This document shows positions 38,525 to 43,936 of a stretch of DNA of 64,000 nucleotides, piece by piece. Position 1 is the first letter of the stretch, and every line of letters begins with the position of its first letter. Both the position numbers and the translations under genes were made by a program. The stretch comes from Candidatus Bathyarchaeota archaeon (GTDB lineage Archaea > Thermoproteota > Bathyarchaeia > Bathyarchaeales > Bathycorpusculaceae), in the NCBI GenBank assembly GCA_963815095.1, contig CAWFFH010000003.1, forward strand, positions 64,001 through 128,000, read 5' to 3'. The notes beneath the pieces are model-generated. The model worked only from the letters and a program-made list of their open reading frames with translations, had not been told where the DNA came from and made no database searches.

Positions 38525-39403
38525 TTGAAATTTGGAATAATGACGCGGAACATGGAAGCATGGAGCTCCACGCAAGTTCGGGAAGCACTAACAAAGAGGG
38601 GCATCCCATACGAATGCTTTACTTTTCCAAGACTTGTAGCACGATTAGCATATAGGCCATACTTTAAAGTTAATGGAACCAGCATCCTCGACGACTTGGA
38701 TGCGCTTATCATTCGCCCAATCGGACGTGGTTCATTGGAGGAATTGGTGTTCCGAATGGACATGCTCTACAAGCTGGAACGCAAAGGATTCTACATGGTG
38801 AATCCACCCACAGCAATTGAACACTGCGTCGACAAATACGACATACTTGCCATCCTTGAAGACGTGGGCGTTCCTGTACCACGCACCTTAGCCACCGAAA
38901 GCGTCAACGAAGCGCTTAAGGCTTTTAACGAACTCGGCGGCGACATCGTCGTCAAACCAATCTTTGGCTCACGCGGACAAGGCGCCACACGCGTCAACGA
39001 CATAGACATCGCCGACACCGTCTTCAAAGCCATAACCTTTCACCACGGCGTAATCTACATGCAAGAATTTGTCCCCCACGGAACCTCAGACATACGTGCC
39101 TTTGTCATCGGAGACCAAGTAGTTTCATGCATGCGCAGAGTAGCAACAGGATGGAAAACGAACTACAGCCAAGGAGCCAAACCAGCCCCAGCAACAATCA
39201 GCAAAGAATTCGAAGAAATAGCTGTGAAATCCGCTAAAGCAGTTGGCTGCAAAATCGCGGGCGTAGACATCCTTGAAGGACCAGATGGACCACGCATCGT
39301 GGACGTGAATAGCCAACCAGGCTGGAAAGGACTGCAGGTAGTTGCAAGAGTTAACATAGCCGAAGAAATAGTCAACTTTGTCTTAAAAGAACTGAAAAAG
39401 TAA
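38525..39403 (+). CDS. RimK-family ATP-grasp alpha-L-glutamate ligase (MptN/CofF-like)
   Basis: DKY, KPIFGSRG, QEF, DIR, WKTNYSQG, GVD, DVNSQPG. Confidence 0.88.
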   Translation: MKFGIMTRNMEAWSSTQVREALTKRGIPYECFTFPRLVARLAYRPYFKVNGTSILDDLDALIIRPIGRGSLEELVFRMDMLYKLERKGFYMVNPPTAIEHCVDKYDILAILEDVGVPVPRTLATESVNEALKAFNELGGDIVVKPIFGSRGQGATRVNDIDIADTVFKAITFHHGVIYMQEFVPHGTSDIRAFVIGDQVVSCMRRVATGWKTNYSQGAKPAPATISKEFEEIAVKSAKAVGCKIAGVDILEGPDGPRIVDVNSQPGWKGLQVVARVNIAEEIVNFVLKELKK

Positions 39404-40402
39404 CTACTTTCCCGAAAGAATCCGGGTATATGGGTCTTCGCTGACTTGCGGAAAAGGCGTTTCTTTTCCTTTTCTAATTAAAGTTCGTTCTTTGTTTTCG
39501 GTAAATTCTCCCAAAAAGTGGGCCGAGAGCCCGAGCTCATTTAATGCGGTTTTGACTTTCTTTTGCGCTTCAGGAGCTACAGCCGCCAAAATCGTCCCAG
39601 TCGAAGAAATTGCGAGCAATTGATCATCTGTTAGTTTAAAATGTTCTTTCAACAACCCTGCTTCCTTTGGCACAGGAATTTTTTCCCAATCTACCCTAAA
39701 CCCAACCTTTGAAGCCACAGCCAACTCGTTGAGCGCCGCCACAAACCCACCTTCAGTCGCATCATGCATCGCATGAACACCCACAACATCAGCAAGTTGG
39801 ATAGCTTCTTTAACGCAGCTCTGCATGCAAACCAGTTTGGCGAGTTCTTCTTGTTTGTCAAAGCCGAAGAGCTCCCGCGCCATCTCCGAATAGGTGAGTG
39901 AGAAGTTGGTGATTGTTTCTAACCCCAAGGGTTTTGTGCACAAAATCAGGTCGCCTGGCTTGGCGTTTCCCGGAGTAATCAACTTCGTGGGCTCTACGGT
40001 TCCATAAACGGTGCAGACTCCAAGCATGTCATTGAGGCTGCCGTACATTCCTGTGTGTCCTCGAACGATGGCTATGCCTAATTCGTCGGCGGCACTGCAG
40101 GTTTGACTCATTATTTTTTGGAATCTCTCAGATTTTGTTCCTAATGGTCCAAGGAGATTTATGGTGCAGAATTCAGGTTTTGCCCCAAACAGAGCCACAT
40201 CTGAAGCGGCATAATTGATGAGTAGCCACCCAAACCATTCCTCAGGCACACCGGTACAAGGGTCAGTTGCAACCGCTACATATTTGCCATGTAGGAGATG
40301 AACGCCTGCATCGTACCCAATCGTGGGCGGAACGATGACTCGGAAATCCTTCTTGATGCAATCCAACATTTTTTGGAGTTCTTTAGCTGCAAGTTTTCCC
40401 AA
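39404..40402 (-). CDS. AIR synthase/PurM-like superfamily protein (lacks the HypE C-terminal PRIC)
   Basis: GYDAG, ATDP, SDVA..GA, GHT, GDLI, MHDATEGG; TTG start abuts the thiT stop. Confidence 0.85.
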   Translation of the reverse strand: MGKLAAKELQKMLDCIKKDFRVIVPPTIGYDAGVHLLHGKYVAVATDPCTGVPEEWFGWLLINYAASDVALFGAKPEFCTINLLGPLGTKSERFQKIMSQTCSAADELGIAIVRGHTGMYGSLNDMLGVCTVYGTVEPTKLITPGNAKPGDLILCTKPLGLETITNFSLTYSEMARELFGFDKQEELAKLVCMQSCVKEAIQLADVVGVHAMHDATEGGFVAALNELAVASKVGFRVDWEKIPVPKEAGLLKEHFKLTDDQLLAISSTGTILAAVAPEAQKKVKTALNELGLSAHFLGEFTENKERTLIRKGKETPFPQVSEDPYTRILSGK

Positions 40403-40975
40403 TTACATATACGCTCTCAGCACATTGCTTTTCTGCAATAAGTAAAGTACGAATCCGCTTATTAGAAATTCGGGCAACAGATAGCTGCCGTTGTAGACTG
40501 TTGAGTAAACCCATGGGTTTAGGGTTGGAGCGTAGACTGGCGCCCAGAAGTACACGCCTGAAACGAAATGCATGGTGAAGCGTGCGCTGATACCGACTGC
40601 GGCTCCCACTACCGGGTGCTTAGGGAAGAAACCAGCTAATCCTAACACAGCGAACGCAAGCGGATAGTCAAGCAGCACTTGGATAATTGCATACGGAACT
40701 GGAGCGATATAGGGTAGAGCCGCGAATTGTATTAAGCCATAGATTACGCCCGCGGTTATGCCGACTTTGGGTCCGCGTCGAAGCGCCAGCCAAATAATCG
40801 GGACCATGGACGCCAAGGTGATGGAGCCGCCCTGTGGCAAGGTGTAGATGATTATGAAGCTAAGTGCGGTGGCTAAGGCAGTAAAAATCGCCAATTCAGC
40901 TAAAACTCGTGGGTTTCTAAAGGATGTTTGATATTTTTTTGATTTTTTTATGGAGTCTGGATTGTTTGTTTGCAT
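40403..40975 (-). CDS. thiT: ECF S-component thiamine transporter ThiT
   Basis: PQGGS, MVPI...RRG, QVLLDY, HFVSG, YS..YN; TPP riboswitch directly upstream. Confidence 0.93.
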   Translation of the reverse strand: MQTNNPDSIKKSKKYQTSFRNPRVLAELAIFTALATALSFIIIYTLPQGGSITLASMVPIIWLALRRGPKVGITAGVIYGLIQFAALPYIAPVPYAIIQVLLDYPLAFAVLGLAGFFPKHPVVGAAVGISARFTMHFVSGVYFWAPVYAPTLNPWVYSTVYNGSYLLPEFLISGFVLYLLQKSNVLRAYM

Positions 40976-40981
40976 TTGTTT

Positions 40982-41074
40982 TTCCCTCCGCCAGTATTAC
41001 CTGGTTCAGGTTCCTAAGGGTCGACACCAAACAGGCGTCCTCTCAGCCGAGTCATTTTCCCAGCTCCCCAAGAA
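40982..41074 (-). ncRNA. TPP (THI-box) riboswitch
   Basis: Minus strand reads TTCTT GGGGAGC...GCTGAGAG...GACCCTTAGGAACCTGAACCAGGTAATACTGGCGGAGGGAA, matching the canonical TPP aptamer; ATG lies 8 nt after GGAGGG. Confidence 0.95.
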
Positions 41075-41227
41075 CTACGGAAAATATGCGTTTCTGTAAC
41101 ATATTAGGTTTGCTAAAGCTGATTTTTCTATTTGCTGTCAAAAACCCCTGTTAAATAACAACGAGCAGGTCATGAAGCATACAGCTCTGTGGTAGACCTA
41201 CACACGCAGTTCTTACATTTCTGTATC

Positions 41228-41271
41228 TGGTAGTAGTAGTCTAGTAAATCTCCTAGACGACTACTTCTAAC
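41228..41271. repeat. Hairpin of the same family as those at 66-381
   Basis: AGTAGTAGTCTAG/CTAGACGACTACT stem (one mismatch); preceded by TATCTG and ending CTTCTAAC, like the unit at 329-381. Confidence 0.55.
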
Positions 41272-41452
41272 TTTCAGTTTTTGTTTTGGGAAGATTGGAA
41301 AAATGCTGGCTGTGCAGGGTAAAAGAAACCGATAAGCTGCTTCTCTTTTTCGCTTAAATCCTATTTTTCTTTCTTTTCTTGTTAGGGTAACGTTTTTAGG
41401 TTTTAGCATAGTTTGCTGATAGTCAAACAGTAACTACAGGATATTGATTAGC

Positions 41453-43936
41453 ATGCAGCCTTTGCCTAAAGAATACAATTTTGCAGAGATTGAGCGTAAG
41501 TGGCAGCAGAAATGGGAAGAAATGGGCATTTACCATTATGACTGGAACGATAAGGAGCGGGTTCCTTTCAGCATAGATACACCGCCGCCCTACCCTTCAG
41601 GCGAATTGCACATGGGCAACGTCCTTAACTGGACATACTTTGACATGGTAGCACGGTACAAACGCATGCAAGGCTTCAACGTGCTCTTCCCCCAAGGCTG
41701 GGACTGCCACGGACTGGGCATAGAAATCCAAGTTGAAAAAGCAAGAAACATACGCAAACGCGATGTCCCCCCAGACCAATTCCGAACATGGTGCATCGAA
41801 CTAGTAGAGAAATACATTGCGATGATGAAGGAAGGCATCCTTGAGATGGGTGCAAGCATCGACTGGACCACTGAATACAAAACGATGGATCCAGACTATT
41901 GGCGCCGAACGCAATTGAGCTTCATTTTGCTTCATAGGAAAGATTACATGTATCGGGGCACGCACCCAGTTAATTGGTGTCCAAGAGACGAAACTGCAAT
42001 CGCCGACGCCGAAGTTGACCACATAAAGAAAGAAGGCGCATTGCATTACATTCGTTTTAACCTTGAAGGAAGCAGCGAATACCTCTTAATCGCCACTTCA
42101 CGCCCCGAATTCATTCCCGCATGCGTTGCTGTGGAAGTTAACCCTAAAGATGAACGCTACAACAAATACATTGGCAGAAAAATCGCTGTGCCCCTCATGA
42201 ACCGCGAAGTAACTATCATCCCCGAGGAGTCAGTGGACCCCTGTTTTGGCACGGGCGTCGTCCAAATCTGCACGTACGGCGACAAAGAAGACGTGAAAAC
42301 CGTCATAAAACACAAACTCCCAGTCATCAGGCTCCTAACCACAAACGGACAAATCAGCGAAGCAGGCTGCAAATACTCGGGTTTGTACGTTAACCAAGCA
42401 CGCGCAGCCATAGTTGCCGATTTAACCGCTGCGGGACTGCTCGAGAAAACCGAGAAGATTCAGCAGGAAGTCGGCGTCTGCGACCGCTGCAAAGCCCAAG
42501 TTGAAATCCTCGAGGTTAAACAGTGGTTCATGAAAGTTCTACCATTATCCGACGCCGTAGTGAAAAACGCCCTCGAAATCCCTTGGTACCCCGACTACAT
42601 GAAAAACCGCCTAATCGACTGGACTCGCGCTCTAGATTGGGATTGGGTTGTCAGCCGCCAACGCCTGTTCGCGACGCCCATTCCAGTGTGGTACTGCAAG
42701 AGCTGCGGCGAAGTCATTGTGGCAGAGGAAAGCTGGGTGCCGATTGACCCGCGAATGGAAAAACCAAGAATTGACAAGTGTCCCAGATGCGGCGGAACTG
42801 AATTCACGGGTGAAACCGACGTGCTCGACACGTGGATGGATAGCTCAATCACCTGCGCTGTACACGCTGGCTGGCCCGACCGACCAGACTGGAAACACCT
42901 GTTCCCCGCAAGTATGCACCCTAGCGGCACAGACATCATCCGAACCTGGGCATACTACCTCATGGTTCGCCACCTCGCCCTGTTCGACGAGCGCCCATTC
43001 AACAGCGTCCTCATAAACGGCATGGTCCTCGGCGCAGACGGCAGAAAAATGAGCAAATCCCTCAAAAACTACGCAGCCGCCCCCGAAGTCCTCAACAAAA
43101 GCGGCGCCGACGCAACCCGCCAATGGGCTGCTGGCGGAGGAGCAACAGGCTCAGACATTCCCTTCCGCGTCCAAGACGTCGAATACGGCAGACGCTTCCT
43201 AACCAAGCTCTGGAACGTCGCTGGGTTTGCAAGCAACCTTTTGGCAGACTACGACCCTAAAGCCAACGCCCAAGTTGACCTACAACCGCTTGATAAATGG
43301 ATTTTAAGCAAAACCGAAAATCTAATTAAAAAAGTCACCGAAGCTTATGAAAAATGCCAATTCAACAATGCCATCGAAGAAATCCGCAACTTCACCTGGC
43401 ATGTCTTCTGCGACTACTACATCGAATCAGTCAAAGACCGACTTTACCGCCAAGAAACAGAAAATTCATCGCCCAAAACGGCTGCTCAACAAACCCTCTA
43501 CAACGTCTTCTACAAGATCTTGCAGTTGCTAGCACCCATAACACCCCATTTGACTGAGGAAATCTACCAAAACATGTACGCTCAAACTAAGGGCTTTGTT
43601 AGTTTACAAATCACTCCCTGGCCAAAAATGGATAGCGCACCCGTTGATATGACGGCTGAAGAGGAAGGCGACAAAGTGATGGCATTGATCGAGGATGTGC
43701 GAAGAAAGAAAGCATCTCTAAAGTTGCCGCTGAACATTCCCATACTGTCCCTAGAAGTATACACAACAAACCAAGCAAACGCCGACTTAATCAACCAAAG
43801 CAAAAACGACATAGCAGGAACCCTTAAAGTTGTAGGTGACTTCAAAGTTGTCCCCCAAGCGGGTCAAGGGCAAGAAGTATCGCAGTTTCCAGGGGTCATT
43901 CCTGTCGCTGTCTTCGGAGTGGCAAATAAAAAATGA
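41453..43936 (+). CDS. valS: Valyl-tRNA synthetase
   Basis: DTPPPY, HMGN, GWDCHG, SRQR, DIIRTW, KMSKS. Confidence 0.97.
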   Translation: MQPLPKEYNFAEIERKWQQKWEEMGIYHYDWNDKERVPFSIDTPPPYPSGELHMGNVLNWTYFDMVARYKRMQGFNVLFPQGWDCHGLGIEIQVEKARNIRKRDVPPDQFRTWCIELVEKYIAMMKEGILEMGASIDWTTEYKTMDPDYWRRTQLSFILLHRKDYMYRGTHPVNWCPRDETAIADAEVDHIKKEGALHYIRFNLEGSSEYLLIATSRPEFIPACVAVEVNPKDERYNKYIGRKIAVPLMNREVTIIPEESVDPCFGTGVVQICTYGDKEDVKTVIKHKLPVIRLLTTNGQISEAGCKYSGLYVNQARAAIVADLTAAGLLEKTEKIQQEVGVCDRCKAQVEILEVKQWFMKVLPLSDAVVKNALEIPWYPDYMKNRLIDWTRALDWDWVVSRQRLFATPIPVWYCKSCGEVIVAEESWVPIDPRMEKPRIDKCPRCGGTEFTGETDVLDTWMDSSITCAVHAGWPDRPDWKHLFPASMHPSGTDIIRTWAYYLMVRHLALFDERPFNSVLINGMVLGADGRKMSKSLKNYAAAPEVLNKSGADATRQWAAGGGATGSDIPFRVQDVEYGRRFLTKLWNVAGFASNLLADYDPKANAQVDLQPLDKWILSKTENLIKKVTEAYEKCQFNNAIEEIRNFTWHVFCDYYIESVKDRLYRQETENSSPKTAAQQTLYNVFYKILQLLAPITPHLTEEIYQNMYAQTKGFVSLQITPWPKMDSAPVDMTAEEEGDKVMALIEDVRRKKASLKLPLNIPILSLEVYTTNQANADLINQSKNDIAGTLKVVGDFKVVPQAGQGQEVSQFPGVIPVAVFGVANKK

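Follow-up and report, generated by a model that had tools for sequence, protein, structure and literature searches.

How can a riboswitch whose aptamer runs straight into the start codon control the translation of its gene? This question is raised by a locus of Candidatus Bathyarchaeota archaeon lying in a stretch of 64,000 nucleotides (nt) of contig CAWFFH010000003.1, hereafter the window, where thiT, the gene for the thiamine-specific S component of an energy-coupling factor (ECF) transporter, directly follows an aptamer for thiamine pyrophosphate (TPP). A first-pass annotation, made from the letters alone, had proposed a full TPP aptamer upstream of thiT in which a P1 helix hides the Shine-Dalgarno (SD) sequence. 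With the Rfam model of the TPP riboswitch (RF00059), a full-length match was found on the minus strand at 41080-40966, covering model positions 1-105 and scoring 61.4 bits (E 1.3e-9) for a gathering score of 54.3 bits. It is the only match in the 2.69-Mb genome, which is 98% complete. Hence the aptamer is present at the place proposed, and the strand, which had not been given, is the minus strand, to which all positions below refer unless noted. The match extends onto the thiT AUG (40975-40973), and the SD sequence is found inside the aptamer itself, in the P4/P5 arm, while P1 has no comparative support.

The conservation of the fold was examined on an alignment (A1) of 72 distinct compact leaders, compact being defined as a start codon at most 12 nt past P4. 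These were taken from the RF00059 matches of two genome scans, one of 41 relatives and one of 151 genomes across the class, in which all matches at or above the cut-off and one at 53.7 bits were collected. In the window, P2 is formed by GGGG and CCCU, and the motifs that contact the ligand, whose roles are taken from passages of two structural papers (PMC7824784, PMC3764141), are intact, namely the J3-2 CUGAGA (41046-41041), the J5-4 CG and the P4 U-A pair; all three are invariant in the 72 relatives. P3 is paired in 98% of the alignment cells and P3a in 95%, with all 5 of its 5 pairs changing on both sides. The P4/P5 arm is paired in 88% of cells; its three CCU/AGG pairs are unchanged in 72 of 72 sequences, and one P5 pair alternates, in 10 sequences, between A-U and G-C. 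For P2 the figure is 70%, and the whole structure is paired in 79.9% of cells compared to 31.7-49.4% in slid controls. Thus P2, P3, P3a, P4 and P5 are each supported, with covariation in P3, P3a and P5. That the ligand-contact motifs are invariant and that these three helices covary points to selection on the fold and not merely on five SD bases. The aptamer is predicted on these grounds to bind TPP. Furthermore, all 29 RF00059 matches from the scan of 41 relatives carry the invariant ...CTGGCGGAGGGAAA, and 28 of the 29 have an in-frame start 4-11 nt past the AGG, the exception being L008, where no open reading frame (ORF) passed the filter.

The GGAGGG read by the first-pass annotation 8 nt before the thiT AUG was indeed found, at 40989-40984, with the 8-nt spacer AAAAACAA between the two. 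According to the Rfam alignment, the 3' end of the aptamer consists, in order, of P5 CUGG, the J5-4 bulge CG, the P4 3' strand GAGG, GA and the P1 3' strand AAAAC. The GGAGG is therefore made of the G of J5-4, one variable base and the AGG of P4, so that the ribosome-binding site (RBS) is integrated in the aptamer as in riboswitches of the direct-occlusion group, and the AUG follows 9 nt past P4. In the thiM riboswitch of Escherichia coli, as described in passages of PMC7824784 and PMC3764141, C77 and G78 of J5-4 contact the pyrophosphate of TPP and metals, and A80 pairs with U59 in P4. Judging from these passages and from the Rfam consensus CG-u-AGG, the SD sequence would be the equivalent of thiM G78-G82. 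The 16S rRNA of the genome ends in CACCUCCU (...GAUCACCUCCU) and thus carries the CCUCC anti-SD tail. In 1524 long ORFs of the genome, the distance from an upstream GAGG to the first ATG peaks at 7-10 nt, with 44, 42, 26 and 26 cases at 7, 8, 9 and 10 nt respectively; SD-led initiation is therefore used in this genome, and the riboswitch spacing of 9 falls within the peak.

P1 is regarded as closing the junction in characterised TPP aptamers. The first-pass annotation had paired UUCUU (41074-41070) with GGGAA to form it, which is not borne out, since the AGG is the 3' strand of P4 and pairs with CCU (41010-41008) in the Rfam alignment; this register takes two G's already engaged in P4 and so conflicts with it. 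The Rfam model itself places the P1 of the window at GUUCU/AAAAC, with a C-A mismatch. Over the 72 relatives, the proposed register is paired in 49.2% of cells (slid controls 40-50%) with no covariation, and the Rfam register in 42.5%, while the window duplex AGUUCUU/GAAAAACAA amounts to -0.7 kcal/mol. We also compared the duplex energy of each 5' flank with its own 3' tail to that obtained when tails were swapped among sequences. No signal of flank pairing was seen in the compact class, the native duplexes averaging -2.6 kcal/mol and the permuted ones -2.8 kcal/mol (191 of 200 permutations as low), nor with 30-nt flanks and 35-nt tails (-8.27 vs -8.40 kcal/mol). When the compact class was run again beside the long leaders, the values were -2.25 and -2.39 kcal/mol (166 of 200 as low), whereas the 46 non-compact leaders, with a start more than 12 nt past P4, do show a P1 (-5.1 vs -3.86 kcal/mol; 0 of 200 permutations as low). 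Since the method detects P1 in long leaders, the compact class is truly without a conserved P1, neither register having comparative support as a closing helix. P1 would then be vestigial in this class, and it is so taken in the interpretation that we favour below. Two further pairings suggested by minimum free energy (MFE) folds were discarded: a helix between the 5' flank and J2/4 (GUUCUU with UUAGGAAC) is paired in 48.1% of cells, the same as in shuffles (48.0%), and an outer helix of the first MFE fold (UUUUCC/GGAAAA and GCAU/AUGC) lies upstream of the predicted transcription start and gives no signal with 30-nt flanks.

We next considered where the transcript begins and whether anything beyond the aptamer could serve as an expression platform. 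Of 53 related loci, 40 have a match to the motif AA[AC]C..T[AT]5, in the form GCAAAAC-CTAATAT, and in 28 of these 40 its T stands 36-45 nt before the GGGG of P2 (-37 in the window). The usual archaeal distance from TATA box to transcription start is about 26-27 nt, which would place the start at ~ 41076; with this predicted start, the 5' untranslated region (UTR) of about 100 nt would be essentially the aptamer alone. A sigma-70 promoter scan was set aside as not applicable to archaea. At L014, L016, L020, L021, L029, L068, L076, L097, L102 and L133, though not in the window, a AACATTATCC(C) box is conserved in the interval from the TATA-like element to the aptamer; it may act as a second element of the promoter or as the binding site of a protein. 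In 40300-41500 no terminator-like site was found, and the RNA past the aptamer is A-rich, not U-rich. With the AUG so close to P4, no terminator-like site and no anti-aptamer element, the window has no separate platform. Neither was a downstream anti-SD or anti-aptamer strand of the thiM strand-exchange type found in it, the sole candidate being a marginal pairing of the SD sequence with the coding region. In 64 compact relatives, such SD-coding duplexes reach -4.6 kcal/mol compared to -4.18 kcal/mol with shuffled coding sequence, 3 of 100 mononucleotide shuffles being as low.

The long leaders present a different picture. The element UYCUYAG is found in 20 of 47 non-compact junctions, whereas 0 of 73 compact leaders have it within 60 nt, and in 22 of the 47 the start is preceded by a separate SD-like 4-mer. 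UYCUYAG (often UUCUCAGC; for example at L094, L095, L098, L101, L103, L110, L112 and L123) is complementary to the J3-2 GCUGAGA, and in the long leaders it looks like the anti-aptamer strand of a strand-exchange platform.

As regards the distribution of the element, RF00059 matches were obtained in 29 of the 41 relatives, including 22 of 24 other genomes of the window's genus (counted as family f1 in our tally), and, in the sample taken across the class Bathyarchaeia, in 93 of 151 genomes and 48 of 79 genera. In a sample of the phylum, 30 of 151 genomes have a match, 20 of them outside the class and spread over four families; our genome samples do not include Thermoplasmata, in which archaeal TPP riboswitches were first reported. 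The first-pass annotation had called riboswitches rare in archaea. This agrees with passages of an older census, which counted very few archaeal riboswitches (McCown 2017, PMC5473149), and it does not hold for the Bathyarchaeia, given the 93 of 151 sampled genomes. Of eight out-of-class loci examined, six have a strong P1 and a separate platform. At L167-L170, L173 and L174, from other classes of the phylum, riboswitches with a strong P1 and a separate SD platform stand before genes for proteins of ~ 283-306 amino acids (aa) that carry a membrane anchor at the N-terminus and may be lipoproteins binding thiamine or substrate-binding proteins of ATP-binding cassette transporters.

Within the Bathyarchaeia, 15 matches were dropped before junctions were counted, 11 having no ORF passing the rule (L008, L066, L072, L087, L092, L105, L118, L130, L134, L138, L153) and 4 by failure of the regular expression (L136, L139, L145, L150). 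Among the 120 aptamer-gene junctions with a callable ORF, 73 are compact. The variable base is G, giving GGAGG, in 64 of these 73 (A in 5, T in 4), and in the other 47 it is G in 20, A in 15 and T in 12. With the window's family left out, the figures are 33 G, 4 A and 4 T for 41 compact junctions and 19 G, 15 A and 11 T for 45 others. Of the 17 families with RF00059 matches, 9 have the compact GGAGG form. In this form the AGG most often stands 7-9 nt from the start, within a range of 6-11 nt for the compact class, and this peak agrees with the genome's own GAGG-to-ATG peak of 7-10 nt. Both compact and long-leader designs were observed in 6 of 103 genomes.

The genes downstream of the 120 junctions were assigned with Pfam as ThiT (71), ThiW (11), a PF07155-like S component (7), an NCS1 permease (4), ThiC (3), ThiD (2) and DUF2284 (1), and 21 match no family at E 1e-5. 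The seven S components of 175-182 aa (PF07155, ECF-ribofla_trS, 27-40 bits), at L004, L019, L023, L026, L029, L099 and L119, stand behind a compact riboswitch in the place of ThiT and may have replaced the importer of one switch by a non-orthologous one. The DUF2284 gene, predicted to be metal-binding, lies directly downstream of a compact GGAGG TPP riboswitch (L129, genome G091); we know of no thiamine link for this family.

The interpretation that we favour, and that we hold to be rather more probable than its alternatives taken together, is that of a TPP-OFF translational switch which acts by direct occlusion, lacks an expression platform and has a P1 that is vestigial. The mRNA would probably begin a few nt before P2, so that its 5' UTR would be essentially the aptamer. 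Without TPP, the 3-bp P4 could open and the 3' end of the 16S rRNA (CCUCC) could pair with the GGAGG. With TPP-Mg bound, the P4/P5 arm would be clamped onto the P2/P3 arm, locking the J5-4 G and P4, so that the SD sequence would be held and loading of the 30S subunit blocked. No second domain, terminator or anti-SD strand would be required, and the switch would control translation of thiT and probably that of the ThiL-like gene behind it. In its wider form, namely that Bathyarchaeia make wide use of a minimal TPP riboswitch without P1 or platform, with the SD sequence in the pyrophosphate-binding arm and TPP and the anti-SD competing for the same five nucleotides, the proposal is more tentative and in our estimate falls just short of an even chance. 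The first-pass annotation had also supposed that translation is blocked without a separate platform; that much is retained, the SD sequence being held in the aptamer and no platform being found, while its choice of P1 as the sequestering helix is not.

Several observations weigh against this interpretation. By nearest-neighbour folding, the P4 pair probability is ~ 0.01 in the ligand-free ensemble of the window RNA, in which the SD sequence pairs instead with CUCC in codons 8-9, at a cost of 4.8 kcal/mol for opening. We know of no TPP aptamer without a stable P1 that has been demonstrated to bind TPP. The starts behind the junction counts were called by a simple ORF rule, by which some are probably wrong (for example L077 and L089), and the counts include many close relatives that are not independent, hence they are descriptive and not statistics. 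The completing G is not specific to the design either, since 20 of 47 non-compact Bathyarchaeia leaders have it too, and a GCGGAGG-ending aptamer pattern was found in 100 of 401 Bacillota genomes (0 with the reversed pattern as control). In the 30 Bacillota loci examined, a strong P1 strand (GAAGTGG...) comes next, mostly followed by a hairpin with a U-run; the ORF rule puts a start at most 21 nt away in 4 of the 30, and at least one such ORF crosses a terminator-like hairpin. The idea that the variable-base G is an archaeal SD adaptation is weakened by these Bacillota sequences. As GCGGAGG is common there in aptamers with P1 and a terminator, the completing G of GGAGG is nothing unusual as an aptamer variant, and GGAGG acts as an SD sequence only at loci that have lost the platform and whose start codon has shifted up to P4.

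Could a ligand-stabilised P1 nevertheless hide the SD sequence and the spacer in the classical style, through UUCUU (41074-41070)/GGGAA (40986-40982) or GUUCU/AAAAC? The former can form by means of two U-G wobbles, GUUCUU/AAAAAC pairs at 5 of 6 positions, and within the genus GUUCUU flanks mostly accompany AAAA(A)C tails, as judged by eye and uncounted. However, the GG of GGGAA belongs to the P4 3' strand, which is invariant in 72 of 72 sequences, and the pairing frequencies, the permutations with 12- or 30-nt flanks and the small duplex energy reported above all go against it, so that we consider a P1-based switch unlikely. A hidden strand-exchange platform, in which the SD sequence would alternate with the CUCC of codons 8-9 (~ 40953-40950) or the 5' flank would act with J2/4 as an anti-aptamer, seems to us a little less likely again. 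Both pairings do form in MFE folds of the window RNA, and SD-coding duplexes are slightly better than shuffled ones; but this signal is marginal, comes from mononucleotide shuffles and related sequences, and the flank-J2/4 extension equals its shuffles. Moreover, pairing of the SD sequence in the ligand-free RNA would regulate an importer in the wrong direction, and the platform element of the long class is absent from 73 of 73 compact aptamers.

We are as doubtful of a TPP-binding aptamer that acts mainly on transcription or on mRNA stability, by premature termination of the archaeal RNA polymerase or by access of an RNase. Archaeal termination needs T-tracts alone, which speaks for such a mode of action, as does the fact that bacterial TPP riboswitches are reported with termination and dual control in the passages of a review (PMC10907184). 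The A-rich RNA past the aptamer and the lack of a terminator-like site in the region scanned tell against it, and a fixed SD-like spacing, such as the 6-11 nt of the compact class, is required by a translational device and needless for a transcriptional one. Finally, the element might be a decaying or constitutive remnant kept merely as an SD sequence and leader for thiT. The loss of P1 and a score of 61.4 bits, close to the cut-off, would fit with decay, yet the ligand-contact motifs are invariant and P3, P3a and P5 covary over the 72 sequences, which come from many families, and this last explanation appears to us highly improbable. The direct-occlusion interpretation is thus the one retained in what follows, and the features on which it rests are listed in the table together with the adjoining genes.

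Features of the thiT locus, with positions in the window and the basis of each assignment
Feature	Position	Strand	Basis
TPP riboswitch aptamer	40966..41080	-	RF00059 match; helices P2, P3, P3a, P4, P5 within 41069-40985
Transcription factor B recognition element (BRE)/TATA-like promoter element, GCAAACC then TAATATGT (TATA-like 41106-41099)	41099..41113	-	Motif match; putative function from archaeal promoter geometry
Predicted transcription start, ~7 nt before P2	41076	-	Predicted from TATA position and usual TATA-to-start distance
P4 5' strand CCU, partner of the AGG of the SD sequence	41008..41010	-	Rfam alignment; pairs unchanged in 72/72 relatives
SD sequence GGAGG (GGAGGG to 40984)	40985..40989	-	G of J5-4 bulge 40989, variable base 40988, P4 3' strand AGG 40987-40985
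A-rich spacer AAAAACAA; P1 3' strand AAAAC of Rfam falls here	40976..40983	-	Rfam alignment
thiT, thiamine-specific S component of ECF transporter	40403..40975	-	PF09515 and TIGR02357 profile matches
Aminoimidazole ribonucleotide (AIR)-synthase-family (ThiL-like) gene adjoining thiT	39404..40402	-	PF00586 and PF02769; best NCBIfam thiL 86.9 bits, below cut-off 184

The gene behind the aptamer encodes a protein of 190 aa that matches PF09515 with 139.9 bits and TIGR02357 with 125.7 bits (cut-off 108.45). Two EcfT genes (CbiQ; PF02361) are present elsewhere in the genome, and the assignment as ThiT is sustained. Its relatives, 58-83% identical, are on records named Candidatus Bathyarchaeia, Bathy-6 or Candidatus Bathycorpusculum, and the NCBI lineage of same-genus relatives (Archaea; Bathyarchaeia) bears out the archaeal host assumed at the outset by the first-pass annotation. 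The ThiL-like gene is probably co-transcribed with thiT. A relative of it was found with tblastn in 45 of 58 loci searched, and at L030-L051 it starts at most ~ 20 nt from the end of the thiT match. Public annotation of these relatives reads HypE or 'AIR synthase-related'. Given that ThiC, ThiD, ThiE, ThiN and TPK are not seen in the genome, the protein may be an unrecognised salvage kinase for thiamine or thiamine monophosphate, and a candidate for the missing one. Convergent with this operon, a RimK-family ATP-grasp gene lies at 38525-39403 on the plus strand, its best match being MptN (tetrahydromethanopterin:glutamate ligase) with 262 bits for a cut-off of 350. An ORF of 79 aa at 41170-41409 on the minus strand matches no family and probably does not represent a gene.

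The thiamine genes of the 98% complete genome were examined as well. No match to ThiC, ThiE, ThiN or TPK was obtained in it, and ThiD gave a single match of 21.4 bits, below the cut-off. As no ThiN domain is present in the genome, there is no ThiR-type regulator. The Thi4 matches of the genome are short, covering 32-48 residues within longer ORFs. Two of them (genome G000, C3:26611-26712 and C9:51920-52021) have identical Thi4-motif scores, each in an ORF of 474 aa, and may reflect a duplicated stretch or assembly redundancy between the two contigs. With no ThiC, ThiD, ThiE, ThiN or TPK, uptake repressed by TPP makes physiological sense, and from its gene content the organism looks like a thiamine auxotroph regulating its importer by TPP.

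The first-pass annotation had further suggested that the riboswitch and thiT may have been acquired together from Firmicutes. PF09515 was found in 43 of 121 sampled Bacillota genomes and in 15 of 201 genomes of the window's phylum, 3 of the 15 being outside the class. A maximum-likelihood tree of 105 ThiT sequences was built with IQ-TREE (LG+G4, with the Shimodaira-Hasegawa-like approximate likelihood ratio test, SH-aLRT, as sole support measure; unrooted), comprising 67 sequences from Bathyarchaeia, 2 from other Thermoproteota, 1 from a metagenome-assembled genome labelled Thermococci and 35 from Bacillota. The 70 archaeal ThiTs all lie on the same side of a branch of SH-aLRT 90, and the ThiT of the window is nested in clades made of Bathyarchaeia only (support 97 and 99). 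A recent transfer from Firmicutes is therefore not supported; one old exchange of ThiT with Firmicute-like bacteria would be compatible with the data, and the tree, being without a real root, does not give the direction of any transfer. The regulatory design departs from that of Firmicute thiT leaders too. These share the pairing of aptamer then thiT (L057, L058, L059, L052), but three of them, L057, L058 and L059, carry terminator hairpins with U-runs, and the fourth, L052 (Peptoniphilaceae), although also compact, has its SD sequence GGAGGA past a 9-nt P1 strand, outside the aptamer core.

No riboswitch class is more widespread than that for TPP, and the aptamer of the window shares with its bacterial members (E. 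coli thiM and thiC, Bacillus subtilis tenA) the J3-2 CUGAGA T-loop, the P4/P5 arm with the J5-4 CG, the link to thiamine transport and, in the interpretation retained, the OFF logic. It departs from them in its expression element. Indeed, the passages of a 2024 review (PMC10907184) present TPP as the exemplar of strand exchange with a separate platform, and SAM-II, SAM-III and preQ1 (S-adenosylmethionine and prequeuosine 1 riboswitches) as direct occlusion, whereas in the window there is no platform, P1 is unsupported and the SD sequence consists of the P4 3' strand and the J5-4 G. The direct-occlusion riboswitches treated there (SAM-II, SAM-III/SMK box, SAM-V, preQ1-I/II) likewise hold the RBS in the ligand-binding fold, join aptamer and platform in one unit and act on translation, as is proposed here, but they have another fold and another ligand, and these passages name no TPP example among them. 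In thiamine regulation, the nearest idea is the hydroxymethylpyrimidine pyrophosphate (HMP-PP) riboswitch (thiS motif; PMC6478431), where an expression element is also embedded in the aptamer; that riboswitch is bacterial, senses HMP-PP and embeds a terminator stem, whereas the window embeds an SD sequence with the TPP-contact motifs intact. Among archaea, the fluoride riboswitch of Thermococcus kodakarensis, a natural riboswitch of a different class thought to act on translation, was as of 2021 the only natural archaeal one tested experimentally, according to passages of PMC8241225. We met no bench-tested archaeal TPP riboswitch in the literature searched, and a Bacteroides TPP preprint contains nothing on an RBS inside the aptamer. 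Our full-text search returned nothing on TPP riboswitches in Bathyarchaeia, the search being a limited one and earlier archaeal surveys possibly already describing the SD overlap.

A compact and apparently P1-less TPP riboswitch with a built-in SD sequence, predicted from its sequence to switch, thus appears to be common in the Bathyarchaeia. If this is true, the TPP class would gain its first direct-occlusion member, which would be the smallest natural TPP switch as well; the aptamer by itself would make up a complete gene switch and a portable sensor of very small size, ~ 100 nt. It would also point to a general route for archaeal riboswitches without bacterial-style expression platforms. 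The presence of RF00059 in 93 of 151 sampled Bathyarchaeia changes the picture of few archaeal riboswitches for one large, uncultured and environmentally abundant class, and it singles out the uptake of thiamine as a regulated trait of organisms seemingly unable to make the vitamin.

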